Positions 32,243 through 60,243 are shown, counted from the first letter of the stretch. The stretch: 64,000 bases of DNA from Phycisphaerae bacterium (GCA_041661865.1 JBAZTO010000005.1:28128-92127); one strand, 5' to 3'. The notes: a model not told the origin generated them from the sequence alone. Numbers and translations: made by a program.

Positions 32243-34093
32243 TCACTTCGACCCACGACGACGAATCAGCGCCAAACCGCCCAGACCCAGCAGAGTCATA
32301 GTCGCCGGCTCGGGAACCTGCATGTCCGGAGCGGGAGCGGCCGACTGGCCGTTCCAGCCCCAGTTGCCGGCCAGCAGCGACAGGTCGCCGGTGCCGACCA
32401 CGCCGTCACCGTTGAAGTCGCCGTTGGTCCAGGTCTTGCCGCTCTGGCCCCAACTGCCGGCCAGCAGGGACAAGTCGCCGGTGGAAACCAGGCCGTCACG
32501 GTTGGCATCACCCTTGCGGGCATAAATATTGGTCTTCACCATGTAATTGGCCGTGGGGCCGCTGCCGCCCGGCCAATAGATGCTGCCGTTCCAGGCCAGC
32601 GCCGTCACGTTGGGGTCGATCAGCCCATTGGCGTCAGCGAACGCATAGTTGCTGGCGTTGACCGTCAGGTTGCTCGTGAAATTGGTGAAGTTGCCGCTGC
32701 TGCCGCTCCCGTTGAAGTTGGTAATGACCGCAAAGTCCTTGTTCGCATAGGGGACGTAGGAACTCGACAGCATCTGCACGTCGAGCGTTCTGCTGGCTAG
32801 GCCCGTAAGATCAAGGTCTGAACCGCTTATGTCGATGTTCGAGTAATCGGTGGCGCTGCCGATTTCGACACCGACCTTGACCGTGCCGGAGGTGTCGCTG
32901 TTGGCACTGGTCTCCAACCCGAAGATCTTCACCGTGGCATCCTTGCCGACATTCAAGGTGGCCTGGATCGGGTAAGCGCCAACGCCCAGGAAGACTCGCT
33001 TCGAGGTCAGCAGCGTGCCGGTGCCGGTCACTTCAATCAGGCCCTTGGAGATGCCGGTGCCACCGGCAGTGGGGTGATCGCCGACAATTATGCCGCACCA
33101 CCCTACGCTGACGTCGTGTTGGAAGGTGCCGCCGGAAATCTTCAGGGCGCCGTTGCCGTCATAGTTGAAGTTGTTCACCTGGCCAAGTATTAGCCACGGG
33201 CTGGCACTGGTGCTTGCCTGCCCCCAGACCATCGAGCCGCCGGTCACGTTGATCAAGCCCGTGGCGGTGCCGCTATAGAATCCCGGATTCCCCATCCCGG
33301 CTCCGCCGATCACCGGCGTACTGGGGCATTTGATGATGGCCTCTCCGGCGTTCATATTATAAATGCCGGTGCCGCCGTTCCTTCCAATGTAGGAAAAGCC
33401 GTTGGGCTCATACAAGCTGCCGCCGTTCTGGTTGAGGATGCCCAACCCGCCGGACATGCCGATCTCGCCTGCTTCAGCCATGCCGCTGATGAGATTGCCG
33501 CTCTGGAGATTGTATGTGCCTTTTGGAATATAGTAGCTGTTGCCGTCCGGAACGCCGGTATAGACGCCCCCAGTGAATCCCTCGCCGACGTACAGGCCGC
33601 CGTTAGTCAGTGTGACGTCGCCGTACTGGGTCACCGTTCCATCATACCGGGTTGCCACCTTCAGCTTATAACCTGCCGTCAGGCTGGCGCCACTTTGGAT
33701 CACCAGGCTGCTCGCGGCCTGATACAGGATCGGGTAGTCGGTGGTACCGGGGGCATAGCCTTCGATCAGCCCGACCCTTTCGCCGCCGACGATGGGCGAA
33801 TACGCCGTGGCGGATGTTCCGGACGTAATGGTGCAGGAAGCTCCATTACGCACATACACCTGGTCGCATGCATCAGGCGTCGCCGTCGGGAATTCCGGAT
33901 GGTCGGCGCCCAGGTAGGAGTCGGTAACCTTGTTTCCGCGGGCGCCGGGAAGCACGGTGAAGTTAGCGGTGCCCCAGGTGCCGTTGGTCGTGTTGAAATC
34001 AATACTATTGGAATCAAGGGCCAGGGCCGAACCACTGCCCACGGCGATCATCGCCACACAAGCAACCAGGCAAAGCCATAATTTGATACTCAT
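32243..34093 (-). CDS. Secreted PEP-CTERM protein with dockerin-type repeats, paralog of 17991..20606
   Basis: It has a signal peptide. The C-terminal cassette DANRDGLVSTGDLSLLAGSWG...DFNGDGVVGTGDLSLLAGNWG...VPEPATMTLLGLGGLALIRRRGSK is nearly identical to the other paralog. Confidence 0.85.
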   Translation of the reverse strand: MSIKLWLCLVACVAMIAVGSGSALALDSNSIDFNTTNGTWGTANFTVLPGARGNKVTDSYLGADHPEFPTATPDACDQVYVRNGASCTITSGTSATAYSPIVGGERVGLIEGYAPGTTDYPILYQAASSLVIQSGASLTAGYKLKVATRYDGTVTQYGDVTLTNGGLYVGEGFTGGVYTGVPDGNSYYIPKGTYNLQSGNLISGMAEAGEIGMSGGLGILNQNGGSLYEPNGFSYIGRNGGTGIYNMNAGEAIIKCPSTPVIGGAGMGNPGFYSGTATGLINVTGGSMVWGQASTSASPWLILGQVNNFNYDGNGALKISGGTFQHDVSVGWCGIIVGDHPTAGGTGISKGLIEVTGTGTLLTSKRVFLGVGAYPIQATLNVGKDATVKIFGLETSANSDTSGTVKVGVEIGSATDYSNIDISGSDLDLTGLASRTLDVQMLSSSYVPYANKDFAVITNFNGSGSSGNFTNFTSNLTVNASNYAFADANGLIDPNVTALAWNGSIYWPGGSGPTANYMVKTNIYARKGDANRDGLVSTGDLSLLAGSWGQSGKTWTNGDFNGDGVVGTGDLSLLAGNWGWNGQSAAPAPDMQVPEPATMTLLGLGGLALIRRRGSK

Positions 34094-46014: not shown

Positions 46015-46087
<73 letters not shown>

Positions 46088-46557: not shown

Positions 46558-46938
46558 CTACCCCCTCTTTGCCTCACGAGAGATGGGGGCGGCGGCCAGC
46601 GTGAAGAGTACGACCTTCTCGCCGGTTATGGTGCTGATGTCGTGGTGCAGGCTTACCACCCTGGTCCCTGTGACGCCTTCAACCATGGCCTCCAGCGCCG
46701 GCCGTGCCGTCTCGGTCAACTGGGTCCGCACCTGTTTGAGCAGGTCCCGGCCCGTCTCGGGCGCGAGTTGGGCGACCAAATGCTGCTCGGCCGATGTCAG
46801 CACGCCGTGGAGACGCACCAGGAGAAGATCACCAAAGAGGTGGGCGTGGATGTCCTTGGGGCCACGGCCCATGTACTCCTGCTCAAAGCGGCTGATCCCT
46901 TCGCAGATAGCGGCTTCGATTTCGCCCTGTGTCTTCAT
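46558..46938 (-). CDS. DUF2294 (MpsC-like) family protein, paralog 1
   Basis: It is 126 aa (MKTQGEIEAAICEGISRFEQEYMGRGPKDIHAHL...). It is 85% identical to 55593..55979 and related to 58136..58594. Confidence 0.75.
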   Translation of the reverse strand: MKTQGEIEAAICEGISRFEQEYMGRGPKDIHAHLFGDLLLVRLHGVLTSAEQHLVAQLAPETGRDLLKQVRTQLTETARPALEAMVEGVTGTRVVSLHHDISTITGEKVVLFTLAAAPISREAKRG

Positions 46939-47149
46939 AGAGCACCATCGAACCTGCCGTGACTGGCGGCTTCAAGACCCGCGAGCCAACGCGCGTAACG
47001 CGTTGCTGTAGCAGCAAACAACGGCTGGCCGGCAGTCTCACGTATGTCATTCATCTTAGGAGGCGCCAAATGCGATTTCCTGAATTATCTGCTTTCGGGC
47101 GCCCACCGCGCTACAATGCCCACGTGGCGGAGCGTGCATGAATGCATGG

Positions 47150-47262
47150 GCTCCGGAGTCGGATGACTAGATAAAGGGCAGCCCGGCGCATCGGGAGGCC
47201 CGTTGACGAGTAAGCCGACGCGGTTCTTCACCTTTGGGTGTTAAGCCGCGTCGGCTTTTTTT
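47150..47262 (+). ncRNA. Candidate structured cis-regulatory RNA or small RNA, copy A, with intrinsic terminator
   Basis: It has the conserved core TCGGATGACTAGAtgAAGGGCAGCC-hairpin-GGGAGGCCCGTTGACGAGTAAGCCGACG and a terminator gccgacgcgg...ccgcgtcggc plus T8. A TACAAT -10-like hexamer lies at 47111. Confidence 0.65.
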
Positions 47263-47342
47263 TCTTGGCCGTGCAATCGACAAGTAGGAGTGAAGCTTGA
47301 CGAACCGGCAGCAGAGTAAGCTGAGTCCAGAAAGGGTAAATC

Positions 47343-47594
47343 ATGGCAAAGTTTCTGAACAGAATCATGATGGTCTTGGTGGTAGTGATGATCGCCTGCG
47401 CCTCCAGTGGCTGCAAGACCACCAAGAAAACAGAGGTCAAGGATAAGTTCTTTGGCGGCACACAGATCAAGGAAACGACCGCGACGGAACACGGCGACAA
47501 AGTCACCGTGACCGAGAAGAAGACCGACTACGACACCAAGGGCGATAAGGTCAAGACGGAGACAAAGACCACGGGCGATACAGGCTCTCCGTAA
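47343..47594 (+). CDS. Small Lys/Thr-rich lipoprotein (83 aa)
   Basis: It has the lipobox MIACASSGC and is followed by a KTTKK/TETKT low-complexity region. Confidence 0.6.
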   Translation: MAKFLNRIMMVLVVVMIACASSGCKTTKKTEVKDKFFGGTQIKETTATEHGDKVTVTEKKTDYDTKGDKVKTETKTTGDTGSP

Positions 47595-47735
47595 GCAGCC
47601 AGGCCGTTCCAAGGGCGAGCCGGAGGTGACGATCCGGCCCGATTGCCGTCGCGGATCGGCGGCCCGTCCGAGTGTCTCTCGGAATAAGTGGCAAGAAAGC
47701 TCTATGTCGGCACCTTCTATTCAAGGAGTCTTACG

Positions 47736-47858
47736 ATGTTTACTGCTCTCGCAAATGCTCTTACGCCTGTTCTCGCCGATGGCACGTACATCTACTGGGG
47801 CGGCGGGCTGGGAACCATTCTCATCATCGTGGTGATTGTGCTCGTGCTTCGCCGTTGA
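47736..47858 (+). CDS. Small membrane protein (40 aa, MFTALANALTPVLADGTYIYWGGGLGTILIIVVIVLVLRR)
   Basis: An AAGGAG RBS lies 8 nt upstream, and the protein has a single TM helix. Confidence 0.5.
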   Translation: MFTALANALTPVLADGTYIYWGGGLGTILIIVVIVLVLRR

Positions 47859-47951
47859 GCACTCACAAGACCACCATTGGTCCTCGGATGCTCAAAGAAG
47901 CCCGATGCGGGCTTATGACGGCGTCCGTGGCAGCATTGGAAGGAGTCTTTT

Positions 47952-48115
47952 ATGGGACTGATTCTACTGATCGTGTTGATCCTGCTGCTCGTCGGTGGCC
48001 TGCCGACCTGGCCCCACAGTCGCAGCTGGGGTTATCGACCCACTGGGATTCTCGGAGTGCTGCTGGTGATCCTGGTTGTGCTGCTGATCCTCGACGTCAT
48101 CCCACGCGGATTCTG
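47952..48115 (+). CDS. DUF3309-family small membrane protein (54 aa)
   Basis: MGLILLIVLILLLVGGLPTWPHSRSWGYRPTGILGVLLVILVVLLIL matches the DUF3309 pattern (PxWP.SR.WGY.P.G). A GGAGGAG RBS precedes it. Confidence 0.6.
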
Positions 48116-48190
48116 AGCGACCCGGTGACGGTTAAGAGCCTGCTGTTCCCGCTCTTCCAGGGCCGGCTCGCCGTCATAAAAAGGACCGAC

Positions 48191-48685
48191 ATGAATAAAC
48201 ATCCGCCGTTGACAGGTCAGGCCAGCAGACCCGCCATGGCACTGGGTCTGCTCGCATTTCTGCTTCTCTGGGGCTGCGCCGGGTGCTCTCCGAGCGCCAG
48301 AGCTCCCTCCGTGGCGGTCGAGGCGCCCGGTGCCCTGGCGGCACCGCCTGCTGCCCCGGCCACGCCGCCGGTGGTGCAGGTCACGGGCGAGCGGTCCGAG
48401 TTCGACTTGGGCACTATCAAGGTCGGCAGCAGGCACCGGGTGATCTTCGCCATCCACAACGATTCCGACAAGCCGCTGAAGATCAGAGAGATCCGAGGCG
48501 ACTGCCCCTGCATTACCTCCGCCGAGTCACCCGAGTACATAGCCGCGGGCCAGGTCGCGCGAGTGGTTGCTCTCTTTGAGGCGCCGGACGTTAACGTGCT
48601 TTACGGCTCCGAGCTGATCGTTGTGACCGACGACCCACTACGGAAGATAATCCGCCTGGCGGTGCGGGCCAACATCCGCCGGTAG
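48191..48685 (+). CDS. DUF1573-domain lipoprotein
   Basis: It has the lipobox LLWGCAGCS. The DUF1573-like region is FDLGTIKVGSRHRVIFAIHNDSDKPLKIREIRGDCPCIT. Confidence 0.6.
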   Translation: MNKHPPLTGQASRPAMALGLLAFLLLWGCAGCSPSARAPSVAVEAPGALAAPPAAPATPPVVQVTGERSEFDLGTIKVGSRHRVIFAIHNDSDKPLKIREIRGDCPCITSAESPEYIAAGQVARVVALFEAPDVNVLYGSELIVVTDDPLRKIIRLAVRANIRR

Positions 48686-48714
48686 CGGGTTTCCCGGCAC
48701 ACGGAGGACCAGTG

Positions 48715-49470
48715 ATGCCATTGCGCGACATATCCAAGACGAGAAGGACTTGTTTCGCAACCGCGACGGCTCGGGGTTTCGCCCTGTGGGCGTGCTCCCT
48801 GGCTGCGATCGGCCTGGCCTCGGCCGGTTGCACGTCGTCGGGCATCTCCTCCTCCAGGCTCGACGCCCTGTTCAGGGAGGTCCAGACCCGTGGTGTGTTC
48901 GTTGGGCTGGAGGGCCTCCAGCCATTCTCGGGGTTTCGCGCGGACCAGGTGGTCGGGACCGTTGGCGACGAGTTGGGTCTGGCGCACTCCACCACGTCGG
49001 GAAACTATAGAGTCCACATGCCAATCATCGAACAGGCCAACAAGAGCGGCTGGCCGATCTATCTCCTGGGCTACAGCCTCGGCGGCGACCAGGCCCGGCT
49101 GCTGGCGGAGGCGTGCAACGAACGCGGCATCACCATCCGCATCCTGTTCCTTCTGGATCCGCACTATATGGCCGCTGACGTCCCCGGCAAGATTCCCAGG
49201 AATGTGCAACGGGTGGTCTTCTGTACGAGCCGCAGTTACGACGACGACATCGCGGTGGTTCCAACGGCTGACAATCTCGCCGACGCCAGCCGGACAGTGC
49301 TGCTTGTCGAGGATATTCCGGCCACCGGGCACATGGACCTTCCGGAGTACGTGACCCAACGAATCCGTGTAGAAATCGCCAAGGACTTACAGCAGGCCAG
49401 CGTCCCGGCGGCGCCTCCCTCGCGCCGCGTCCCTGGCGACGGCACACAGGCAAGGAGTGGAAAACGATAA
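48715..49470 (+). CDS. Alpha/beta-hydrolase-like lipoprotein (putative esterase/lipase)
   Basis: It has the lipobox LASAGCTS and the nucleophile-elbow motif GYSLGG. A GGAGGA RBS precedes it. Confidence 0.55.
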   Translation: MPLRDISKTRRTCFATATARGFALWACSLAAIGLASAGCTSSGISSSRLDALFREVQTRGVFVGLEGLQPFSGFRADQVVGTVGDELGLAHSTTSGNYRVHMPIIEQANKSGWPIYLLGYSLGGDQARLLAEACNERGITIRILFLLDPHYMAADVPGKIPRNVQRVVFCTSRSYDDDIAVVPTADNLADASRTVLLVEDIPATGHMDLPEYVTQRIRVEIAKDLQQASVPAAPPSRRVPGDGTQARSGKR

Positions 49471-49496
49471 GTACTCGCCAACACCTGGCCGCGTTT

Positions 49497-49979
49497 GTGA
49501 ATCGTGCCGGTCGCATGGTCGCTTGCGCCATGCTGTGCGCTGTGGCGGGAGGCTGCGACGGCGGCCAGGTGACACACCTGCGCAATGATGCGGAATTCAA
49601 CCAGGTCGTTCTCCAGAGCGACAAACCGGTCCTCGTGGACTTCTACAAGGGCGGGTGCCCGACGTGCATTCGAGTGGATGGCATGATGGGCCAACTGGCC
49701 GAGGAGTACAAGGGCCGGGTAATCGTCGCCAAGTTCATGCTGATGCAGCCGTACTTCGTGGTCACCTCGCCGGAGCTCAAGAGGCAGTATGGCATCGATT
49801 TCTTCCCGACGGTGATCCTGTTCGTCAATGGAAAGGAGACGTGGCGCCTTCTCAGGGACTACGAGCTCGACGACTACCGCAGGGTAATGGACCAGGCTCT
49901 TGGCGTTCCGAGGGCGCCGGTGACTTCCCTCGACACGGGCAAGCCATCGGGCAAATACCCGGCCAACGTCTCGCAATAA
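49497..49979 (+). CDS. Thioredoxin-like lipoprotein; start GTG at 49497 or ATG at 49515
   Basis: It has the lipobox AVAGGCDG and the thioredoxin motif VLVDFYKGGCPTC within the fold. Confidence 0.6.
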   Translation: MNRAGRMVACAMLCAVAGGCDGGQVTHLRNDAEFNQVVLQSDKPVLVDFYKGGCPTCIRVDGMMGQLAEEYKGRVIVAKFMLMQPYFVVTSPELKRQYGIDFFPTVILFVNGKETWRLLRDYELDDYRRVMDQALGVPRAPVTSLDTGKPSGKYPANVSQ

Positions 49980-50076
49980 CATTGGCCCAGATAGATATTT
50001 ATTCTGTATTCCATTTGATTCGGGCGTATTGGGCGCTAGGATGGGGTTTCCGCAGAGCGATAGAGCCGTTCGCACG

Positions 50077-50158
50077 CTCTGTGTCGGATGACTAGATGAA
50101 GGGTAGCCTGGCCCGGCCGGGAGGCCCGTTGGAGAGTAAACCGGCGTGGAAGGTGTCC
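50077..50158 (+). ncRNA. Candidate structured cis-regulatory RNA, copy B, without a terminator; its 3' end is the RBS of the downstream gene
   Basis: It has the same conserved core (TCGGATGACTAGATGAAGGGTAGCC-hairpin-GGGAGGCCCGTTGGAGAGTAAACCGGCG). It is followed by GGAAGG-5 nt-GTG of the DUF1570 lipoprotein. A TAGGAT -10-like hexamer lies at 50037. Confidence 0.55.
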
Positions 50159-51157
50159 GTGCGTTTGTACCTCGCAACGATCGTGGTGGCGACCGGCCTG
50201 ACCCTGGGGGGCTGCGCGCCTGATTCCCAGAGGCAGGCGCTCAATGCCACCCCTGCAAGCAACGCGCCCCCCTGTGCTGCCCTCGCCTCTCAAGTCGGCC
50301 AGACCCTCCAGGTCCACGAGACGGATAGGTTCCTTGTGCTGTCGGCCGCGAACGACGCCTCCGCGGCCGCGACCGGGCAGTTCCTGGAGCAGGCCTATCT
50401 CCGGTTTTACGAGCAGTTCACCCTGGCCGGCTTTGAGCCCAAGCCTCCACGGGACAAATTGACCTGGGTGTGCCTCAACTCCTACGGCGCCCTGGAGGCC
50501 TACGGTCGGGCTGCGGACGGCGCGGACGTGTCGTGGATGGATGCGTACTACTCGCACCGCACCAACCGTGTGGCGGCGGCCATGGCGGCCGGTCGCCCGG
50601 CGCCACAGGCAAGAGTCCGCTCATCGGGTTCCCCTGGCAAGATCGCCGCCTTCAGCGATCCGGGCGGCGGCCAGATCGCCTCCGGCAGCCTTAACATCAG
50701 GACCATCACCCACGAATTGACCCACCAGTTGGCCTTCAACACTGGACTGCAAAGGCGTGGCGTGACCTATCCCTTCTGGCTCACAGAGGGACTGGCCACG
50801 AACTTCGAGGCCGATTCCCCGAAGTCGGTCGGCCTGGGTCGACACGACAGCCGCTATGGCCCGCGACTGGTCGAGGCCAAGGCCGGCGGCAGGTTGATCT
50901 CGCTGGAACAGTTCGTTGGGATGACGGAGTGGTCCGCCGGCCAGGGGACCGCTACGCGTGATGCCTATGCGGAATCGTGGGGGTTATTCCGCTACCTGCT
51001 GGAGCGGCATCCTGTCGCTCTCAAGAAGTATATGGCCGAGATTTCATCGGTGTGGCTCCCGCCGCAGAACAGTGAGTCTCTACGCCGGCGATTCATCGCC
51101 GCTTTCGGCCCCATCAAGCCGCTGGAGGCGAACTTCCTGCGGTCCGTTGACAAGTAG
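50159..51157 (+). CDS. DUF1570-family lipoprotein with an HExxH motif (start taken as GTG at 50159; the listed ORF starts at 50096 inside the RNA element)
   Basis: It has the signal and lipobox LTLGGC, ITHELTHQ as a putative zinc-binding HExxH, and Planctomycete DUF1570-like architecture. Confidence 0.6.
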   Translation: MRLYLATIVVATGLTLGGCAPDSQRQALNATPASNAPPCAALASQVGQTLQVHETDRFLVLSAANDASAAATGQFLEQAYLRFYEQFTLAGFEPKPPRDKLTWVCLNSYGALEAYGRAADGADVSWMDAYYSHRTNRVAAAMAAGRPAPQARVRSSGSPGKIAAFSDPGGGQIASGSLNIRTITHELTHQLAFNTGLQRRGVTYPFWLTEGLATNFEADSPKSVGLGRHDSRYGPRLVEAKAGGRLISLEQFVGMTEWSAGQGTATRDAYAESWGLFRYLLERHPVALKKYMAEISSVWLPPQNSESLRRRFIAAFGPIKPLEANFLRSVDK

Positions 51158-51282
51158 CCCGCGCAGACTGAAACGTCTGAATTCTGAATCGTGCGTGTCC
51201 TTGATCCCATTCCTGGCAATACGCCTGGCGACGCCGTGTGTCGCCATGAAAGGCCACAGCCCCCTCAACTTGCCTCGAAAAA

Positions 51283-51367
51283 CAGGTCACATGACCTGAA
51301 AAAGCAGGTCACCTGCTCAATTGCCCCACAAACACAAAGAGCCGCAACCTTTTCGGGTCACGGCTCT
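51283..51367 (-). terminator. Three consecutive intrinsic terminators downstream of tRNA-Pro on the minus strand
   Basis: The minus strand reads aagagccg...cggctcttTGTGTTTG, then agcaggtgacctgcTTTTT, then caggtcatgtgacctgTTTTT. Confidence 0.6.
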
Positions 51368-51376
51368 TATGTCACT

Positions 51377-51450
51377 CGGGGCGAGAGGATTTGAACCTCC
51401 GACCCCCTGGTCCCAAACCAGGTGCTCTAGCCAAGCTGAGCTACGCCCCG
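51377..51450 (-). tRNA. tRNA-Pro (anticodon TGG)
   Basis: CGGGGCG acceptor pairs with CGCCCCG, the D-arm is GCTCAGCTTGGCTAGAGC, the anticodon loop is TTTGGGA, and the T-arm is GGTTCAAATCC. Confidence 0.9.
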
Positions 51451-51658
51451 TGCGTTCAGCCCAAAGGCCGACAGGGGCATTGTGGCACACGCCTGCCGGT
51501 CCGTCAAGCTAAACGCCCCGAGCGGTTGGGCTGCATTTCAGGTAATCGTGGCAGTGGTGCCGTCGCGGGCGAGGCAATTGTCGCGCGGGCCGGTGTTCGC
51601 GTCGCCGGAATGGACGCAGCCGGCTGCGAAATTAACCGCGACCAACCGGATTAATTGT

Positions 51659-51687
51659 TTTGACTTTGCCCCCCGCAAGCAGGACAA
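51659..51687 (+). promoter_or_regulatory. Sigma-70-like promoter (TTGACT-N17-GACAAT) with a ~190-nt 5' UTR before cspA
   Basis: The hexamer spacing is 17. Cold-shock protein genes typically have long structured 5' UTRs. Confidence 0.45.
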
Positions 51688-51884
51688 TCAGACAGTTAGG
51701 GCTGGCGGGCGTTGGGAGAAGTGCTCCCAGGACACCAGCGAATCCGGTTGGCGACCGTGTTCTTTTGCAGCTTGCACCCAGGTTCTAGCCGCATCGTGAG
51801 TGAACAACTCTTCACAGCGGGTCAGTTCGGCTTGGATGACGCTTGCGAATCCCAAGTGCCGGTTTTTCTCAAGGAGCCATTGTT

Positions 51885-52085
51885 ATGGCAAACGGCAAAG
51901 TGAAGTGGTTTAACGACACCAAGGGTTTCGGGTTCATCACGGGCGAGGACGGCACCGACGCGTTCGTGCATCATGGTGACATCCAGGGCGAAGGCTTCAA
52001 GAGCCTGGCCGAGGGTGAGTCTGTCACGTTCGATATGACCCAGGGCCCCAAGGGCCCCAAGGCCATCAACGTTCGCAAGGCATAA
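51885..52085 (+). CDS. cspA: Cold-shock protein (CspA family)
   Basis: [15 protein letters not shown] and [20 protein letters not shown] are RNP1/RNP2-like motifs. An AAGGAG RBS precedes it. Confidence 0.9.
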
Positions 52086-52215
52086 GCCGCAAGCAAACGT
52101 GAATCACGCGGGCGCCGCCCCTCAAAAGGCGGCGCCTTCTTTTTGCGCCGATCCGCCCGAAGGAGCGCCTCCCAGCCGCCCTCGGCTGGGAGAACCTGCC
52201 CTCCGCCCTTCGCTC

Positions 52216-53235
52216 TCAGCGGATGCGGAAGGCCCGTCGCAGGACCGGCTCGGGGCCGGAGTAGAACTTGACCTCATAGTCTCCCGGCCCGCCGCCCTTG
52301 GCTGCAATCTCGCTGGGGTCAAAGTCATAGCCGAAGCTCTTGTGCTCCTTGCTCCAGCGGATGTCCCTCTCGGCCAGGTCGGTGCGACCCTCCTTGCGGA
52401 CGATGGTCAACCGGAACTGGTTGCGGTCGCACACGGGCGGCAGCTCGACGACGACGAACATTTTCTTGTCGCCGACCTTGTAGGTGTCCTGGAACGTCCA
52501 GCGGTTGTCATACAGCTCGCTGGCCAGCCGAATGGTGTTGGTCGCGTCGATCTTGACCTGCTTGCGCACCGGGGCGAACCACTCCACCAGTTGCACGGCC
52601 ACGCCGTCGGAGGCCTCGGCCAGGCAGGCGTGGGGATCCTTGGAGGGGGGCGAGCCCTCGGCCCAGGCCTGCGACATCGGCGGCCTGGCCGTGGTGGCAA
52701 TGACCGTGCCGTCACTGACGCGGATGAGATTGGCCGTCACCGAGACATTCCCCTCGTTGCGCGTCCAGACGTAGTTGCGATACCCCGAAATGTACATATT
52801 GCCTCTGGAGTCGAAGGCGTAGATCGGATCCTGTCGCGGCTGGCTGTTGGAGGTGCTGTCATAGGTCGCGACGGTTCCCACGAGAATGGCCTGCACGTTG
52901 GTGAGTTTCTGCCGCTGGGCGGCAGAGGCGGCCGCGTCGCTGCCCAGAGCGATCTGAAGATCCTTCTCATCCATGACGGCCTTGAGGTCGTTACGGTTGA
53001 AGACCTTGTACGTGCCGTTGCCGACCAGGCAGGCAGACACCTTGTCGGAGATGATATCCCCGGCCCCCTGATGGCTGGTCTGGTTGCGGAAGGGAGCGAC
53101 CGCGACGGTCTTGAGGTCGGGACTGTAGAAGTCAGGTGTCTGGATGACCGAGATCGTCTTGCTGCAGCCGGTGAGCATCGACAGGGCTGTGGCCAGGACC
53201 AACACGCCGACGTAAGAAACCTTGCACATTCTCAT
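52216..53235 (-). CDS. CsgG-family-like lipoprotein
   Basis: It has the lipobox LTGCS, then VAVAPFRNQTSHQGAGDIISDKV...FKVFNRNDLKAVMDEKDLQ, which resembles the CsgG/LpoB-like N-terminal pattern. Confidence 0.4.
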   Translation of the reverse strand: MRMCKVSYVGVLVLATALSMLTGCSKTISVIQTPDFYSPDLKTVAVAPFRNQTSHQGAGDIISDKVSACLVGNGTYKVFNRNDLKAVMDEKDLQIALGSDAAASAAQRQKLTNVQAILVGTVATYDSTSNSQPRQDPIYAFDSRGNMYISGYRNYVWTRNEGNVSVTANLIRVSDGTVIATTARPPMSQAWAEGSPPSKDPHACLAEASDGVAVQLVEWFAPVRKQVKIDATNTIRLASELYDNRWTFQDTYKVGDKKMFVVVELPPVCDRNQFRLTIVRKEGRTDLAERDIRWSKEHKSFGYDFDPSEIAAKGGGPGDYEVKFYSGPEPVLRRAFRIR

Positions 53236-53362
53236 CGAGTTCTCCTGTTACGTGCATCGGCCGGTTTGGACCCTGCGGCCGGCTGAATATGGCCATTATG
53301 GTAATGGGCGGGAGTCTCGATGACAAGGCCTCAATGGGCCTCAAGATGATCCGAAAGGCCGG

Positions 53363-53704
53363 CTACTCCGGGCGCGGAGACAACTGAATGGTCGCCAGGG
53401 CCGTGGAAACATCCTGGGTGAACTCGAAGGTCTTGTCCAGACCCGTGACCTGGAAGAGGCCCCATGCGTGCGGGCTGATCCCGCACAGAACCATCCGCCG
53501 CCGCCCCGCGTGGAGCAACTTCCGCACGCGAAGCAGCGCGGCGATATTGGAACTGTTGATGAAGCCGACGGTCGAGAAATTCAGCACCACGTCAGTGGTC
53601 TTGGCCTCCAGCGCCGACGCCAGCGCCTCCAGGTCCTCGGAAAACTGGGGGTCTTCCATCAGCTCGACCACGGTAATCTCGTCTGACCAATTCTGAATTC
53701 CCAT
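53363..53704 (-). CDS. STAS-domain anti-sigma-factor antagonist (SpoIIAA/RsbV-like)
   Basis: It is 113 aa with the STAS pattern VVLNFSTVGFINSSNIAALL. Confidence 0.65.
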   Translation of the reverse strand: MGIQNWSDEITVVELMEDPQFSEDLEALASALEAKTTDVVLNFSTVGFINSSNIAALLRVRKLLHAGRRRMVLCGISPHAWGLFQVTGLDKTFEFTQDVSTALATIQLSPRPE

Positions 53705-53728
53705 CGCCGTCGATTCCTTTCACTCACG

Positions 53729-54400
53729 CTAGCCCAGACCCGGACCATCCAGGGGCCCCAGGTCGCTCTCATCCTTATCGGCCATCGCGGCCTCTTTGTT
53801 CTCATCGCCGAGCACACCTTTTGCCACGTGCTGGGCAATGGTCCCCAGGGCCGTGTCGAGAATGACATGGCAGGCCAGCAGGATCGCCAGCGGAATGGCC
53901 AGTTTCTGCATCGTGTCATAAAACGGGCCCGACACGTAGGTGCGCAGGATCAGGCACAGTGCGAAGCCGAACGCCGCCATCACGCCAAAGAGCATCAGCC
54001 CCCACGCGATCATGCGCCGCCCGTAGCTCATCAGGCGGAGAATCATGATGCTCCCGCAGCCGGTGATGATCGTGGCGACGAGGATGCAGGCCATGGTCAT
54101 CCCGGTGGCCGATGCACTGTTGAAGATCACCGCGCTGGAGGGGTTGGTGGCCAGGGCCATCGCCCAGACCACCAGGATCGCCAGGTGCGCCGTCGCCCAG
54201 ACGATGCCGACCCAGCCGACCAGCTCCACCCCCGCCGTGCGAACGGTGAAAGGCTCGGGCGGGTTGACCGGCTTGATGGCCGCGAACCGGGCCTTGCTCA
54301 GTTGCCCGCTTCGCAGCAGCCCGCGAAACAGGGACATCGCAGCCAGAACCGCCAGCGCGACGATGAACGAGGCAAAGATGATCGGTACCAGTGATGCCAT
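53729..54400 (-). CDS. Polytopic membrane protein of unknown function
   Basis: It has 5-6 predicted TM helices and no motif was recognised. Confidence 0.5.
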   Translation of the reverse strand: MASLVPIIFASFIVALAVLAAMSLFRGLLRSGQLSKARFAAIKPVNPPEPFTVRTAGVELVGWVGIVWATAHLAILVVWAMALATNPSSAVIFNSASATGMTMACILVATIITGCGSIMILRLMSYGRRMIAWGLMLFGVMAAFGFALCLILRTYVSGPFYDTMQKLAIPLAILLACHVILDTALGTIAQHVAKGVLGDENKEAAMADKDESDLGPLDGPGLG

Positions 54401-54428
54401 AAACGCTCCTTATTTCCGCCCGACGGCG

Positions 54429-55397
54429 TCACCTCATCCGGTACACCAGGCGGTGGTCCAGACCCATCGCCCGCACCGTCGGCAGGATGTCCTTAAAGAA
54501 CCGGTTCCCATCTTGATAATAGCCCGCCGTGGGCAGGAGATCGGGTACATGTTCAGCCCAATATGCGTTGAGGACCTCCATGAGCATCTCGCGGAGGTAC
54601 TTGCTGGCCATGGACGCCAGCGCGACGGGAAGCTGCTTTTCCTCGGCGGCGACGGAGAAATGCATCTCGGCCCAGCGCCGGCCGTCGGCGATGCGATAGG
54701 AACTGCTGGTCTCGCTCTCGTCGATGATCTTGAACGAGCAGCCGGCAAAGGCCCGCTGCAGGCCCTCCAGGTAGTGCATGCGTCCGCCCTGGCGATCGAC
54801 GAAAATGCGGATGTTCTGCCCGCCGGCGAGGTTCCACAGGAACATCAGCAGGCGACAGGCGACGTCGAAGAGCATGGTGGACTTGTTGCCCGCGTCGGTC
54901 AGGCGATTGAATTCCTCCTCCAGCACGACCTCGCTGCGCAGGGCCAGCAGTTCGACGCCGGCTTTCCGCATCGACTCGCCCAGGCTGTTGCACGCCAGGC
55001 CGGCTGTGGTGGCCGACATGCTGCGCGGCAGGGGCAGGTCCAGCCCGCGATACCAATTACACGCCGATGCCCTGGCCACAGCGGCGGGAGAAAGTTCCTC
55101 CAGCAGGCCTCGCAGGGTCGGGGGCAGCGGGCGCGTCGTGCCCAGCATGGCCAGCACGCCGCGCTCCAGGTTGGACAGCCCGGCCGGGCCTCGCATGCCG
55201 CCGTAGAGTTTCTTGGAGTCGCCGATGGCGATGCGGCTGGGGCGCTTGGGCACGCGGCGGGTGACCGCGCCCGACAGGAGCTGCCACATCGAGGCCTCGG
55301 CCGGCTCGTCGGGAATGGAAAATGCGGCGGCCGAAACCACCAGCGGGCCCAGCACCGGGCCCAGACCTGCCTCGTCGATGCCTGCAATAATCGCCAA
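54429..55397 (-). CDS. rnhB: Ribonuclease HII-like (RnhB) with a C-terminal extension
   Basis: The N-terminus IAGIDEAGLGPVLGPLVVSAAAF and the IGDSKKL motif are the RNase HII signatures. At 322 aa it is longer than typical RnhB. Confidence 0.6.
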   Translation of the reverse strand: MAIIAGIDEAGLGPVLGPLVVSAAAFSIPDEPAEASMWQLLSGAVTRRVPKRPSRIAIGDSKKLYGGMRGPAGLSNLERGVLAMLGTTRPLPPTLRGLLEELSPAAVARASACNWYRGLDLPLPRSMSATTAGLACNSLGESMRKAGVELLALRSEVVLEEEFNRLTDAGNKSTMLFDVACRLLMFLWNLAGGQNIRIFVDRQGGRMHYLEGLQRAFAGCSFKIIDESETSSSYRIADGRRWAEMHFSVAAEEKQLPVALASMASKYLREMLMEVLNAYWAEHVPDLLPTAGYYQDGNRFFKDILPTVRAMGLDHRLVYRMR

Positions 55398-55592
55398 GGA
55401 AACTCCCCTACTGCCTAAAGACGTAACACCTTCGTGGCGTTGTAGTGCCAGACCCTCGGACCCCGCCGGGGCCCAATGAGAGAGGATTATAGAGTGCAGG
55501 GCATGGATAACAACAGGATTGCGCGGGGAGCGGACAGGCCCGCGGCCGCTGGATCGTGCCAGGAGCTTGGGCGCGGGGCAGGCAGCCCCGCC

Positions 55593-55979
55593 CTACAGTT
55601 GCTTCTTCGGCTCGCGAGAAACAGAGGGTGCGGCCAGCGTGAAGAGCACGACCTCCTCGCCGGTTACGGTGCTGATGTCATGGTGCAGGCTTACCACCTT
55701 GGCCCCGGTGATTCCGTGGATCATGGCCTCCAAGGCCGGCCTGGCGGTTTCCACCAACTGGGTCCGCACTTGCTTAAGCAGGTCGCGGCCCTTCTCGGCG
55801 GAGAGCTTGGCGACCAGATGCTGTTCGGCCGCCGTCGGGACGCCGTGGAGACGCACCAGGAGAAGATCGCCGCCAATCAGGTGGGCATGGATGTCCTTGG
55901 GACCACGGCCCATATATTCCTGTTCAAAGCGGCTGATCCCTTCGCAGATAGCCGCTTCGATCTCGCCCTGCGTCTTCAT
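55593..55979 (-). CDS. DUF2294 (MpsC-like) family protein, paralog 2
   Basis: It is near-identical to 46558..46938 over ~120 aa. A GAGGTG RBS precedes it. Confidence 0.75.
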   Translation of the reverse strand: MKTQGEIEAAICEGISRFEQEYMGRGPKDIHAHLIGGDLLLVRLHGVPTAAEQHLVAKLSAEKGRDLLKQVRTQLVETARPALEAMIHGITGAKVVSLHHDISTVTGEEVVLFTLAAPSVSREPKKQL

Positions 55980-56194
55980 AAGCACCTCAAATGCGCCGCA
56001 GTTCAAGAAACCAGAGGCAGGGAGGCACCCATCCCGATGCCCTGACAGAACAGAGACCTACATCTTTCCGGCCAGCCCGGATTCCATAGCCATGATAGCA
56101 GGCGCGGAACGCGATTTCCGGAATTAGCATATTTCGGTCACTCGCCGCGCTATGATATGACATGAGTTTAGCGGGGCGTATGCTGAAGCGTGTG

Positions 56195-56306
56195 CTCCGA
56201 ATCGGATGACTAGACGAAGGGCATCCCTGCCAAGCGGGGAGGCCTGTTGACGAGTAAGCCGATGTGGTTTTGCACCCTTGGGTGCGTAACCGCGTCGGCT
56301 TTTTTT
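56195..56306 (+). ncRNA. Candidate structured cis-regulatory RNA or small RNA, copy C, with intrinsic terminator
   Basis: It has the conserved core with ACGAAGG rather than ATGAAGG, hairpin ccctgccaagcgggg, and terminator gccgatgtgg...ccgcgtcggc plus T7. A TATGAT -10-like hexamer lies at 56151. Confidence 0.65.
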
Positions 56307-56359
56307 ATGGCTTGATGGCCCAGGAAGCGATGGCGGCGATGGATGATAGGAGAACAAAC

Positions 56360-56494
56360 ATGAACAGGACTTGGCTCGGCGTTATCGGCGCAATTCTGGC
56401 GGTTGTTGTCCTGGCGTGGCTGCTCGGCAGCAAGATGAGCTGCCATGAGAGCTTCTGGAACAAGGACAAGCAGGTCATCGAGATTAATCGGTGA
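56360..56494 (+). CDS. Small membrane protein (44 aa, MNRTWLGVIGAILAVVVLAWLLGSKMSCHESFWNKDKQVIEINR)
   Basis: It has a single TM helix and a weak GGAGAA RBS. It lies just downstream of RNA copy C. Confidence 0.4.
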   Translation: MNRTWLGVIGAILAVVVLAWLLGSKMSCHESFWNKDKQVIEINR

Positions 56495-56535
56495 GCTGGT
56501 TCTGCCCCCTGCACGAAGGCAACAGGAGCATGACC

Positions 56536-57714
56536 ATGGAAACTCGAACCCTCCCATCGCGGGGGCCGCCCGTGGCCCCAGGCAGGACTGGGCGTTGGAA
56601 GAGTGCGGCGCCAAGGCCTCTACCCTTCGCGAAGACTCCGCGGGAAGGCGAAACAGAAAGAGTTCCGGCGGCGGAAGGCGCGGATTCGCGGGAACAACCC
56701 ACGCCAGTTCGGTTCAAACCGAGCGAAGCTTATGAACTGTCCGGCGACCAGGTGGACGGCGCGGCCATTGCCCGAGCTGTCGACGCCATCGAGATCACCT
56801 GCGGCTATCGCTTCCTCCATGACTGGCTGGTCGTGCAAGGCTTCATCGAGGCCAGGCCGGGAGGCTTGCACCTGAGCCGATGGGACACCCTGCCGGAGTC
56901 GGGGCTTTTCCTGGCCTGGGCAGGGTCCAAACTGGTTGCGGTCCAGGCCGCCGTTCCAGAAGGACAGGACAAGGGCCTCCCGTCCGCCGGGCCGTTCTAC
57001 ATCGAGATCGGCAACCTTCGCCGCCGAGGGAGCCGGCTTTGCGAACTGGGCATGTCAGCCGTCACGCCGGCACTTCAGAAGAGCGTCCTCCCGGCGGAGA
57101 TGATTCGCTGCTGCGTGGCCCACGCCGTGGCCGCGGGATGCAGCCAGGTCGTCGCCACGGTCGATCCGTCGAAGGCGCGGCAATACTCCGACTGGGGCTT
57201 CAGTATCGCCAATCCCATCCGCGTGTTCTCCAGCGACATGCCTTTTCCAGCCGTGTTGGCCAGTCTGGACCTGGAGGCCCTTGCCAGGGCCGGGGGTGAG
57301 TCGGAAGTCTTCGCGGGTGGCCTGTCGCCACGGGATTACTACATAGATCGCAACCCCTACCTTCGCCACGCCGAACGGTGGTCGGTGCAGGCGGGTGACA
57401 CCTTCGGCAGCGCGGAATTTCTTCGCGAGTTGTTCGTGAGGCGGAGCGGCCTGCTGGAGCGGTGCAACGAAGAAGAATTGGCAACGATCTGCCGGGAGTG
57501 GGGCCGATCGTTGTTCGATCAGGTATGGACGGGGCCCGCGATCCCGGCATGGCGATCCGAGATGAGCGAGTCCGAACCGACCACGGGGCCGCGGGTTGCC
57601 GCGGTCGGCCGTCGCGGTCCAGCGTCGGGAAGCAGGCCACGTCCTCAACGCGGCAACCCGTCGCCCGTGGAGATGCATGCCGCACTGCTGCTGGCGGCTG
57701 GGAGCGTCTCGTAG
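56536..57714 (+). CDS. Hypothetical protein (~392 aa)
   Basis: A CAGGAG RBS lies 7 nt before the ATG at 56536. No family was recognised. Confidence 0.45.
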   Translation: METRTLPSRGPPVAPGRTGRWKSAAPRPLPFAKTPREGETERVPAAEGADSREQPTPVRFKPSEAYELSGDQVDGAAIARAVDAIEITCGYRFLHDWLVVQGFIEARPGGLHLSRWDTLPESGLFLAWAGSKLVAVQAAVPEGQDKGLPSAGPFYIEIGNLRRRGSRLCELGMSAVTPALQKSVLPAEMIRCCVAHAVAAGCSQVVATVDPSKARQYSDWGFSIANPIRVFSSDMPFPAVLASLDLEALARAGGESEVFAGGLSPRDYYIDRNPYLRHAERWSVQAGDTFGSAEFLRELFVRRSGLLERCNEEELATICREWGRSLFDQVWTGPAIPAWRSEMSESEPTTGPRVAAVGRRGPASGSRPRPQRGNPSPVEMHAALLLAAGSVS

Positions 57715-57806
57715 AAGGGTCGGAAACATTAAATTGATTAATAACCCTTTTGACCCGACTCCGCTGCCTACAATGGCACATCTGGAGATCAGGCCAAGCG
57801 AGCCGG

Positions 57807-57920
57807 CTCCGGGTCGGATGACTAGATGAAGGGCAGCCCCGTTGTGACGGGAGGCCCGTTGACGAGTAAGCCGACGTGGTTTTACACCCTTGGGTGTTCA
57901 GCCGCGTCGGCTCTTTTTTT
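57807..57920 (+). ncRNA. Candidate structured cis-regulatory RNA or small RNA, copy D, with intrinsic terminator
   Basis: It has the conserved core, hairpin cccgttgtgacggg, and terminator gccgacgtgg...ccgcgtcggc plus T7. A TTGACC-N12-TACAAT element lies at 57751-57774. Confidence 0.65.
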
Positions 57921-58135
57921 GTTTCAGGCCGGTGCGAAACGTCGCGGTGGCAAAAGACTGAAGCCTATGATCGCATATAGATTTACCATAACGCAGCAGG
58001 TCGCCCAGGCGGCTGTCGCATACCGGCGGCGGAGCGCGGGTTACGTGTGTGCGTCGGCGGCCTTGAGCGTTCAAACCTCCACAATCCTGTTTACTCGGTG
58101 GTACGGGGGCCCCGTGACCACCCATGAGGAGTCCA

Positions 58136-58594
58136 ATGGACACGTCCCAATCAAATATGGCGCAGCAGGTGGCACAGGCTGTGATGGCCTTCCAGCAGAA
58201 GATGACCGGCCATGCGCCTAAGGCGGTCACCGTGGTCCTGAGTCAGGACACTCTGGTGGTCACGCTGCACGAGGCCCTGTCGCCGGCAGAGAGAGACATG
58301 GCCAAGAGCCCCTCAGGCGCCGCGACGGTGCAGGAGTTTCACCGCCAGCTCTTCTTCAATTCCTCCCAGTCGTTGCGGGAGGAGATCAAGAGGATCACCG
58401 GCGTGGAAGTGCGGGAAGTTGTCGCGGAAGTCGAGCCTTCGACGGGGGCGATGGTGTGCGCCTTCGCGAGCGGGACCATGGTGCAGGTGTTCCAACTCGC
58501 CCAGGGCATCCCCGCGGACACCTGGAACAAGAGCGGATCAACGGATCAGCCGGGTTCCATGCGGGACAAACCGAAAGAGGCAGGTGCAAGATGA
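58136..58594 (+). CDS. DUF2294 (MpsC-like) family protein, paralog 3 (divergent)
   Basis: It shares the family core VTVVLSQDTLVVTLHEALSPAERDMAKSPSGAATVQEFHRQLF. A GAGGAG RBS precedes the ATG at 58136. Confidence 0.7.
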   Translation: MDTSQSNMAQQVAQAVMAFQQKMTGHAPKAVTVVLSQDTLVVTLHEALSPAERDMAKSPSGAATVQEFHRQLFFNSSQSLREEIKRITGVEVREVVAEVEPSTGAMVCAFASGTMVQVFQLAQGIPADTWNKSGSTDQPGSMRDKPKEAGAR

Positions 58595-58631
58595 AGCCTA
58601 TGATGAGAGGGACAGGTGCAAGATGAAGCCT
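58578..58631 (+). repeat. 23-nt tandem duplication spanning the DUF2294-3 stop codon and creating the start codon of the next gene
   Basis: caggtgcaagatgaagcctatga occurs at 58578-58600 and again at 58609-58631. Confidence 0.7.
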
Positions 58632-58841
58632 ATGACAATTATCGGTATTGTTCTCATAGTCCTGGGCGTGGCCGGCCTGGTCTTCCAGGGCATCAGTTAC
58701 ACGACGACCGAGAAGGTCGTGGACCTCCCGGGCCTCCAGGTCAATGCCGAAAAGGAAAAGACGATCCCAATTCCGGCCATCGTGGGCGGGTTGGCGCTGG
58801 CCGGCGGCGTGGCAATCGTGGTCGCGTCGCGGAAGACGTAG
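58623..58841 (+). CDS. Small membrane protein (72 aa)
   Basis: MKPMTIIGIVLIVLGVAGLVF...IVGGLALAGGVAIVVASRKT has two hydrophobic helices. A GAGAGGGA RBS precedes it. Confidence 0.5.
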   Translation: MKPMTIIGIVLIVLGVAGLVFQGISYTTTEKVVDLPGLQVNAEKEKTIPIPAIVGGLALAGGVAIVVASRKT

Positions 58842-59372: not shown

Positions 59373-59771
59373 ATGAACAAGCTTGTGGTAGTAGCGTTAA
59401 TGGCCGCGGTCGCTCTTGTGGGCTGCAAGAAGAGCGAAGAGGGCGGCCGAGCCGGGAACGACACGTTCAAGGTCGTCGTCCCAGCCATGTCCACCGATGT
59501 CAAGCAGGGTGAGTTTCAAAGCGTCCGCGTGTCGGTGGAGCGAGGCGAGGGATTCAAGCAGGCGGTCAAACTGGAAGTGAAAGCCCCCACGGGTCTGCAA
59601 GTTGATCCCGATAGCACCACGGTGCAGCCAGGCGACAAGGGCGAGGTGCAATTGAAGATCACGGCCGCCAAGGACGCCCCCCTGGGCGATCAGAAGATCA
59701 TGGTCAAAGGCACGCCGGACAAGGGCGAGTCCGTGGAACTGGAGTTCAAGGTTACAGTCGGCGCCAAGTGA
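59373..59771 (+). CDS. Lipoprotein, paralog A of a tandem pair
   Basis: It has the lipobox LVGC and a shared architecture with 59842..60243 (FKV..P.....VKQGE..SV..SV.RG..FK..V.LE......G..V.P....V....). An RBS is present. Confidence 0.55.
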   Translation: MNKLVVVALMAAVALVGCKKSEEGGRAGNDTFKVVVPAMSTDVKQGEFQSVRVSVERGEGFKQAVKLEVKAPTGLQVDPDSTTVQPGDKGEVQLKITAAKDAPLGDQKIMVKGTPDKGESVELEFKVTVGAK

Positions 59772-59841: not shown

Positions 59842-60243
59842 ATGAAAACGACACTACTGATCGTGATGGCACTGGCCGTGACAGTCGCACTGGGTTGCGA
59901 GAGCCCCCGAGGCGGGGGCATGTCCGGTGGCGAAGGGTTCAAGATCGGCACTCCGACCTTCACCACACAGGTCAAGCAGGGCGAAACCGAAAGCGTGACC
60001 ATCTCGGTGAACAGAGGTAAGTATTTCAAGCGGGACGTGACCCTGGAAATCAATGCGTCCAAGGGCATCAGCGTCGAACCGACCCAGGCCACGGTTAAAG
60101 GGAACGAGACACCGGACGTGCATCTTCGGATTACGGCGGCCAAGGACGCGGATCTTGGCGAATACAAGGTCTATGTGAAGGGCACGCCGGAAAGCGGAGA
60201 GGCGACCTCGACGGAGATCACGGTGAAGGTCGTCTCCCCGTAA
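59842..60243 (+). CDS. Lipoprotein, paralog B of a tandem pair
   Basis: It has the lipobox ALGC and the same pattern as paralog A (...ITAAKDA.LG..K..VKGTP..GE...E..V.V). Confidence 0.55.
   Translation: MKTTLLIVMALAVTVALGCESPRGGGMSGGEGFKIGTPTFTTQVKQGETESVTISVNRGKYFKRDVTLEINASKGISVEPTQATVKGNETPDVHLRITAAKDADLGEYKVYVKGTPESGEATSTEITVKVVSP

Follow-up and report, generated by a model that had tools for sequence, protein, structure and literature searches.

What is the role of a structured RNA element that recurs four times within a single genomic locus of a Phycisphaerae bacterium? The element lies in a stretch of 64,000 nucleotides (nt) (GCA_041661865.1, JBAZTO010000005.1:28128-92127), referred to here as the window, and its four copies are all located on the + strand, at 47129-47263 (A), 50053-50161 (B), 56173-56306 (C) and 57784-57920 (D). 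An earlier note on this DNA had suggested that the copies represent a riboswitch-like, attenuator or small RNA family. The reading that we favor, with a probability of roughly 0.55, is that each copy is a 5' leader that acts in cis as a conditional terminator, in which an effector, of whatever kind, would stabilize an antiterminator; a protein effector is placed slightly ahead. As outlined below, a family member consists of a sigma-70-like promoter, an optional hairpin (P0), an irregular rod of ~62 nt and a 20-bp intrinsic terminator.

Two sequence blocks mark the core of the element. The 5' block, TCGGATGACTAGAYRAAGGG, matches the + strand at 47159, 50084, 56202 and 57814 in a pattern search of the 64-kb window (4 observed vs. 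0.01 expected), and the 3' block, GGGAGGCCYGTTGRMGAGTAARCCG, matches at 47193, 50119, 56237 and 57849 (4 observed vs. 0 expected), which places all four copies where the earlier note had put them. A profile built from the four copies (nhmmer) found no fifth copy in the window. Folding and alignment bear out two further points of that note, namely that the internal hairpin varies among the four copies yet remains paired, and that the flanking GGGY/GCCY helix carries wobble changes. The upstream gCTCcg that it had included is the 3' half of a separate hairpin, P0, which lies outside the core. In copies A, C and D the core leads on to a long hairpin and T7-8, the intrinsic terminator that had been proposed, whereas copy B instead continues into an open reading frame of the DUF1570 family.

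A new RNA family in Planctomycetota

The element is not confined to the window, as ~150 copies were identified in 129 loci, nearly all of them in Planctomycetota (Phycisphaerae and Planctomycetia). One pattern scan of species-representative genomes matched 49 loci, all of them in metagenome-assembled genomes and nearly all of these from Planctomycetota; the latter belong to Phycisphaerae and, within Planctomycetia, to Thermoguttaceae, Pirellulales, Gemmataceae and Planctomycetaceae. A covariance model (R1), built from a 54-copy alignment (A2), recovered ~80 copies in these 49 loci plus the window, ~23 of which lie outside the scan pattern. The copies are clustered, with up to 4-5 within 8-11 kb per locus. 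A match in Nitrospira (L014) fits the scan pattern, fails the covariance model and was rejected as a chance match, and a scan of viral contigs returned no element. True copies are also present on contigs labeled delta proteobacterium, Actinomycetota and Actinomycetes (L002, with three copies, L030 and L042), labels that reflect either mis-binning or a wider host range.

To obtain an unbiased set, metagenome contigs were searched with the MpsC_A protein alone, a DUF2294/MpsC family member that is encoded divergently from copies A and C, and only then was the RNA looked for. Upstream sequence of at least 330 nt was available for 72 mpsC_A loci, and in 56 of these the element is present on the strand opposite to the gene, beginning 138-495 nt (median ~220) from the start codon. 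The resulting alignment, A5, contains 70 RNA copies, which are free of RNA-pattern bias because their loci were picked through the protein; unless stated otherwise, the conservation counts and column numbers below refer to it.

Comparison with Rfam 15 (4227 covariance models) at gathering thresholds returned only two transfer RNAs (tRNAs) across the whole window, and when copy A and the region 56100-58000 (copies C and D) were scanned by E-value, the scores were at chance level only (mir-8303, 21.8 bits vs. a threshold of 90; Cis90, 15 vs. 50). Six homologous loci likewise had no match in Rfam. The searched literature on DUF2294, MpsC and planctomycete riboswitches, small RNAs and CsrA, a coverage that leaves out most subscription journals, contains no description of the motif. 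By these searches the RNA family is new, while its type of regulation is a known one, and the suggestion that it was undescribed stands.

The rod is preserved by compensatory changes

The covariation that had been seen among four copies extends to the wider alignment. Eight of the ten upper-rod pairs change on both sides, and 95.7% of the alignment cells are paired, as compared to ~47% after a one-column shift of the partner. The terminator has such two-sided changes in 12 of its 20 pairs. Across rod and terminator, 96-97% of cells are paired (vs. ~45% after the shift). The covariation score of rod and terminator was reached by none of 500 shuffles, and a mutual information analysis of 143 distinct full-length copies recovered the same pairs and no pseudoknot.

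The rod is closed by helix P1, in which G12UCGG16 pairs with C93CGAC97. A first 3x3 internal loop (A17-U18-G19 opposite A90-A91-G92) is followed by the helix A20CU22/A87GU89, a second 3x3 loop (A23-G24-A25 opposite N84-N85-G86) and the helix U26-R-A28/U81-U-R83. Next, A29 lies opposite G80, followed by G30GGC33/G76CCY79, A34-R35 opposite R74-G75, and an apical stem with a loop of variable length. Five purine-purine oppositions are conserved: A17.G92 is kept in 61/69 copies, G19.A90 in 69/69, A23.G86 in 58/69, A29.G80 in 63/69 and A34.G75 in 61/69. Altogether ~35 positions are near-invariant, including the stretches UCGGAUGACU and GAGUAAGCCGACG. The GGA at columns 15-17 is kept in 66/70 copies, whereas a second GGA, within GGGAGG, has its A in 34/70. 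A separate coupling links columns 24 and 83, where a change of G24 to A accompanies a change of G83 to A (8/11 vs. 15/58; Fisher p = 0.005 without phylogenetic correction; G47170 and G47205 in copy A); this is not covariation of the Watson-Crick type and may stem from a non-canonical contact, or from a shifted register within the second internal loop.

Several other readings of the conserved sequence were tried, and most were rejected. Peptides beginning MKGS... had been explained in the earlier note as mere translations of the element, and this explanation is upheld: the ATG is not conserved (ATA in copy A, ACG in copy C), variation in hairpin length shifts the frame, and the frames of copy B and its ortholog in locus L009 differ within the element. 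A Shine-Dalgarno (SD) sequence followed by a TTG start (GGGAGG..UUG) fails as well, since half of the unbiased copies have G, C or U in place of the A of GGGAGG, and UUG changes to UUA, UUC or UUU. Mimicry of 5S ribosomal RNA loop E or of the sarcin-ricin loop does not fit the AGUA/GAA register, and the Rfam 5S models gave no match. A CsrA-type hairpin, GUC-GGAU-GAC, may be conceivable but is at odds with the invariant ACU/AGU helix.

Rod and terminator share one strand

The 3' strand of P1 and the base of the terminator 5' arm are the same nucleotides, AAGCCGAC, and rod and terminator would therefore be mutually exclusive. The stretch can pair to the 5' GUCGG..U or, alternatively, to the terminator 3' arm. 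A competing antiterminator pairing had been anticipated in the earlier note, and it is supported by folding: the 5' GUCGG is complementary to the CCGAC at the base of the terminator 5' arm, and when the terminator 3' arm is omitted the minimum free energy (MFE) fold of all four window copies is closed by GUCGG/CCGAC. In folds of the whole sequence, the terminator forms in copies A, C and D. No change occurs in any of the 70 copies at C93, C94 and G95, at the 5' positions they pair with or at their terminator partners, a pattern expected of a strand shared by two helices, and the remaining terminator is free to vary, with compensatory changes.

A census of all cores shows how regularly the terminator is present. 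The U-tract is clean after 140 of the 152 cores. Contig ends truncate five of the remaining 12, the U-tract is interrupted in another five, and the hairpin is truly absent only in copy B and its ortholog in L009. Because these two terminator-less copies keep both strands, GUCGG and CCGRC, P1 is conserved independently of the terminator. In copy B, GGAAGG and a GTG codon (50159) that starts a lipoprotein signal peptide come directly after the rod, and it is only from ..TGGAAGGTG onward that B and L009 share a reading frame. The MFE calculations yield an alternative fold of copy B, CGUUGGAGAGUA...UACCUCGCAACG, which buries the SD sequence and the start codon and excludes the lower helices of the rod.

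Downstream genes are co-oriented with the element

The best coding frame 60-600 nt after the U-tract is co-oriented with the element in 112/122 cases, and the ten exceptions are mostly weak calls. Genes start ~20-140 nt past the U-tract, and most of them are preceded by an SD-like sequence. A cis-acting leader is favored because the co-orientation, the nearby gene starts, the census of U-tracts and the fold of copy B point to it together. Among the options left in the earlier note, it is the cis attenuator or riboswitch-like element that gains from these data, which include a terminator-less variant in a 5' untranslated region (UTR), and the free-standing small RNA that loses.

The most frequent first gene downstream encodes a D-type DUF2294/MpsC protein (40/122), named after the gene behind copy D. 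A gene of the CsrA family (PF02599, E = 3e-14) is present in ~19 loci, either after the D-type gene or directly after the element. Other first genes encode DUF3309, Transgly_assoc (YeaQ/GlsB), YflT, Host_attach/baeRF, fatty-acid desaturase, ice-binding-like, HicB-like and KaiC-like proteins, response regulators and small lipoproteins. By analogy, this target set resembles the general-stress regulons (sigma-B, EcfG) of other phyla. The tight link to DUF2294/MpsC and CsrA genes, like the P0 hairpin, is absent from the earlier note. Two protein searches for DUF2294/MpsC returned at least 8000 and at least 6640 matches; MpsC_A is 70-85% identical across the genome loci and has no sequence match in the PDB.

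Within the window, copy A precedes genes for an 83-aa (amino acid) lipoprotein, a 40-aa peptide, DUF3309, DUF1573, a 251-aa protein and thioredoxin; copy B precedes the DUF1570 gene; copy C, genes for a 54-aa membrane protein and a FeeM-like acyltransferase; and copy D, mpsC_D and the gene for a 68-aa membrane protein. The segments 46566-46939 and 55604-55980, which are 82-91% identical (repeat families D2 and D4), correspond to the mpsC_A paralogs divergent from copies A and C, an identity which indicates that a gene-plus-leader module was duplicated within the locus. In some loci (L035, 5134-5337 and 4460-4645; L024, 5861-6043 and 1-150), two CsrA-family paralogs stand in tandem behind the element and mpsC_D, and their products (MLVLSRK...VHRxEVWERI) contain 6-8 inserted residues as compared to E. 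coli CsrA. The gene for the 40-aa peptide (MFTALANALTPVLADGTYIYWGGGLGTILIIVVIVLVLRR), at ~47690-47812, is followed by that for DUF3309 (54 aa; L130 gene calls), and a close homolog stands directly behind the element in L048 (~4625-4750). At 58573-58635, a 31-nt unit, GAAAGAGGCAGGTGCAAGATGAAGCCTATGA, is directly duplicated with 90% identity, which doubles the ribosome-binding site and start region of the gene for the 68-aa membrane protein that follows mpsC_D.

Promoter, P0 hairpin and other features of the window

The earlier note had pointed to a -10-like hexamer before each copy. Such hexamers are present upstream of all four, and a -35 TTGCtT and a -10 TAnAAT recur upstream of the element family-wide; a strict scan, whose consensus is that of E. 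coli, did not call the four hexamers. The P0 hairpin (GGAGC...GCUCC) is found in at least 79/145 family members and begins 9-12 nt after the TAnnnT hexamer. It explains the gCTCcg described above and places the start of transcription just before P0. The spacing from P0 to UCGG is either 3 nt or ~12-24 nt, which defines two subfamilies, and the P0 stem of copy B is compensated (AGAGC/GCUCU).

The features of the four copies and their adjoining genes are collected in Table 1. Between copies B and C, the window encodes a cold-shock protein (51885-52085, +; PF00313) and a STAS-domain protein (53363-53704, -; PF01740, anti-sigma-antagonist-like), both of which fit a stress-related neighborhood. The two tRNA genes detected with Rfam (46015-46087 and 51376-51450, both on the - strand; 72 and 65 bits) flank the first two copies and, judged by their anticodon loops, are probably tRNA-Lys(CUU) and tRNA-Pro(UGG). 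Downstream of the copy D operon lie two adjacent paralogous lipoprotein genes (59373-59771 and 59842-60243; 132 and 133 aa; NPCBM_assoc-like Ig fold). Finally, two segments of ~250 nt at 17998-18251 and 32256-32512, 14.3 kb apart, are 82-83% identical; they are probably paralogous genes and appear to be unrelated to the element.

Table 1. Coordinates of the four element copies and of the genes next to them in the window.
Feature	Position	Strand	Basis or remark
mpsC_A1, 126-aa DUF2294/MpsC, divergent from copy A	46558..46938	-	PF10057 E = 4e-36; identical to P0001
Copy A -10-like hexamer TACAAT	47112..47117	+	Weak -35 CTGCTT 17 nt upstream; read from sequence
Copy A P0 hairpin GGAGC...GCUCC	47129..47154	+	Read from sequence
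Copy A rod (antiterminator or aptamer-like domain)	47158..47219	+	MFE fold without terminator 3' arm; cmsearch 116.8 bits; P1 GUCGG/CCGAC, 3x3 loop AUG/AAG, ACU/AGU, UAA/UUG, GGGC/GCCC, CCCG/CGGG
Copy A intrinsic terminator AAGCCGACGCGG...CCGCGUCGGCUU + U8	47212..47263	+	5' arm overlaps P1 3' strand
First gene after copy A, 83-aa lipoprotein	47343..47594	+	Homolog follows element in L033
Copy B -10-like hexamer TAGGAT	50037..50042	+	Read from sequence
Copy B P0 hairpin, compensated stem CAGAGCG...CGCUCUG	50053..50081	+	Read from sequence, folded
Copy B rod GUCGG...CCGGC, no terminator after	50083..50145	+	cmsearch 63 bits
Copy B alternative hairpin CGUUGGAGAGUA...UACCUCGCAACG	50128..50183	+	MFE folds; inferred
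Copy B SD-like GGAAGG	50148..50153		
Copy B probable GTG start of DUF1570 lipoprotein gene	50159..50161		PF07607
mpsC_A2, DUF2294/MpsC paralog divergent from copy C	55593..56006	-	PF10057 E = 2e-33; 83% identical to A1
Copy C -10-like hexamer TATGAT	56151..56156	+	Read from sequence
Copy C P0 hairpin GGGGC...GCUCC	56173..56198	+	Read from sequence
Copy C rod AUCGG...CCGAU	56201..56263	+	MFE fold; cmsearch 121.9 bits
Copy C intrinsic terminator + U7	56256..56306	+	Folding, family covariation
Copy D -10-like hexamer TACAAT	57769..57774	+	Read from sequence
Copy D P0 hairpin GGAGA...GCUCC	57784..57810	+	Read from sequence
Copy D rod GUCGG...CCGAC	57813..57875	+	MFE fold; cmsearch 118.6 bits
Copy D intrinsic terminator + CU7	57868..57920	+	Folding, family covariation
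mpsC_D, DUF2294/MpsC, downstream of copy D	58124..58594	+	PF10057 E = 3e-22; probable start 58157, as in 145-aa P0121

Discussion

In the mechanism that we propose, transcription would start a few bases before the optional P0, and the next ~62 nt would fold into the rod. By default the terminator would win and a short RNA of ~130-170 nt would be released (the OFF state). In the ON state, an effector would lock the rod and keep AAGCCGAC from the terminator 3' arm, and RNA polymerase would read into the genes. In copy B and its ortholog, the same rod would be coupled to the translation start of the DUF1570 gene, without a terminator. We infer the switching and its direction from the strand overlap, the fold preference and the genomic context. 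The leading candidate for the effector is a protein encoded by a neighboring gene (MpsC_A, MpsC_D or a CsrA paralog), with a small molecule or ion nearly as likely; a protein is favored because of the synteny and conservation of mpsC_A, the regularly spaced purine mismatches of the rod, and the fact that mpsC_D and CsrA genes, like bglG, are located behind their own leader. A more specific and tentative version, which we consider less likely than not, is that MpsC_A, alone or with MpsC_D and a CsrA paralog, senses stress and clamps the purine-mismatch rod, and would then represent a new RNA-binding antiterminator class for a phylum-wide general-stress regulon. Just as novel would be the alternative in which the rod forms a new class of riboswitch that responds to a stress signal and has the DUF2294 genes as its main targets.

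The closest precedent for a protein effector is provided by the BglG, SacY and LicT proteins of Bacillus and E. coli, which act on the ribonucleic antiterminator (RAT), a hairpin whose 3' strand overlaps the terminator 5' arm and whose stabilization leads to read-through. As in these systems, an imperfect hairpin with conserved internal loops overlaps a terminator, and the regulator may be encoded behind its own target. However, the element had no match of any kind in the Rfam scans and does not appear to resemble RAT in sequence, the rod, at ~62 nt, is about twice as long as RAT (~29 nt), and no CAT or PRD domain was detected with Pfam among the neighboring genes (MpsC, DUF1570, DUF1573, thioredoxin, FeeM, CsrA and others). 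It is also well established that the trp and pyr leaders choose between antiterminator and terminator under the control of TRAP and PyrR, regulators that are encoded nearby; there, however, the protein favors the terminator, and the present element has neither (G/U)AG repeats nor a PyrR-type loop, and the proteins are unrelated.

Several observations weigh against a switch of the proposed kind. All three strands involved in the exchange are invariant, so the switching helix P1 is without the covariation support that the upper rod and the terminator have, and in the alignment pair 12-97 is unpaired in 15/69 copies and pair 18-91 in 14/69. The fold of the L009 ortholog lacks the mutual exclusivity seen in copy B, and as a result the argument for a translational switch in copy B is weak. 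For a small-molecule effector, a straight rod would be an atypical pocket, and for CsrA only a single GGA is conserved (66/70, with the second in 34/70). A very efficient terminator and clustered copies would also suit an abundant small RNA.

How do the other explanations compare? An ON-type riboswitch, in which a metabolite, second messenger or metal ion whose level increases in stress would bind to the internal loops and the bound rod would block the terminator, is in our view somewhat unlikely, although several features speak for it. The element has the features common to riboswitches in general, a covarying structured domain and a same-strand position in the 5' UTR, and it resembles the ON riboswitches for adenine (pbuE), fluoride and guanidine (guanidine-I) in that a 5'-UTR domain shares its P1 strand with a terminator, termination is the default, and expression platforms differ, here between the terminator and the SD-sequestering fold of copy B. 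The ~35 near-invariant nucleotides in internal loops, shared by two classes of the phylum, would suit ligand recognition; the heterogeneous, stress-like regulon recalls those of second-messenger riboswitches, and the neighboring proteins have no recognizable RNA-binding fold. Unlike those riboswitches, however, the element is a single rod without a multi-helix junction or pseudoknot, matches nothing in Rfam and is syntenic with a protein gene. A metabolite sensor would not need such tight synteny with mpsC_A, and no pathway or transporter from which a ligand could be guessed is apparent in the downstream genes. It is improbable that the terminated RNA of ~130-170 nt is itself the product, a trans-acting small RNA that could, for example, serve as a sponge for CsrA paralogs through a 5' GGAUGA freed by the terminator, with read-through being incidental. 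This explanation would account for an own promoter and a very strong terminator, for clusters of up to 4-5 copies in 8-11 kb, and for the presence of CsrA paralogs in the same loci, and the element does share with CsrB, CsrC and RsmX/Y/Z a multi-copy nature and a GGA in a potentially single-stranded 5' segment. Those RNAs, however, carry 5-22 GGA motifs as opposed to the one that is conserved here (P0 adds a GGAG in its stem in about half of the copies), and the conservation of the element is spread over a long helix and not limited to loop GGAs. Moreover, a free-standing small RNA gene would be co-oriented with its neighbor in about half of the cases as compared to the 112/122 observed in what are co-oriented 5' UTRs, the genes start directly past the U-tract, and terminator-less 5'-UTR variants exist. 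A role as a small RNA and control in cis may coexist.

Attenuation promoted by CsrA would reverse the logic of the switch, in that the rod would block termination by default and CsrA, bound at the 5' GGAUGA, would open P1, allow the terminator to form and repress its own operon and regulon, much as TRAP does. The presence of a CsrA gene within the controlled operon, the conserved GGA in the 5' strand of P1, and the fact that P1 forms before the terminator 3' arm is made are compatible with it, but the terminator wins at equilibrium without any factor, the second GGA is not conserved, and most copies and many loci lack a nearby CsrA gene, with none detected in the window; we regard this arrangement as very improbable. 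That the element has no regulatory role at all, and is a repetitive extragenic palindromic (REP)-like or miniature inverted-repeat transposable element (MITE)-like repeat, or a constitutive 5' stabilizer with a leaky terminator, is hardly credible. It is multi-copy, clustered and palindromic in character, as such repeats are, but it occupies a syntenic position beside mpsC_A in many unrelated metagenomes, its helices are preserved by compensatory changes, its strand is fixed relative to the downstream genes, a repeat search of the window revealed no terminal inverted or flanking repeats, and viral contigs gave no matches; a REP- or MITE-type repeat was accordingly rejected. An RNA thermometer of the ROSE or fourU type was set aside as well, since in almost every copy a terminator comes well ahead of the ribosome-binding site and only the fold of copy B covers an SD sequence and start codon.

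A conditional terminator held open by an effector would bear on a phylum in which gene regulation is poorly characterized. The searched literature describes no general stress response for Planctomycetota, and the element, which is among the most conserved non-coding sequences found in the planctomycete loci, marks an apparent co-regulated gene set of stress type across two classes of the phylum. The apparent partnership of the element with DUF2294 and CsrA genes is unusual, and the element provides a handle on the function of DUF2294/MpsC, on the role of the extra CsrA paralogs and on the activation of planctomycete stress genes. Should the effector prove to be a small molecule, the rod would define a new riboswitch class, and if it is a DUF2294 or CsrA protein, the element would represent a new protein-RNA antitermination system.

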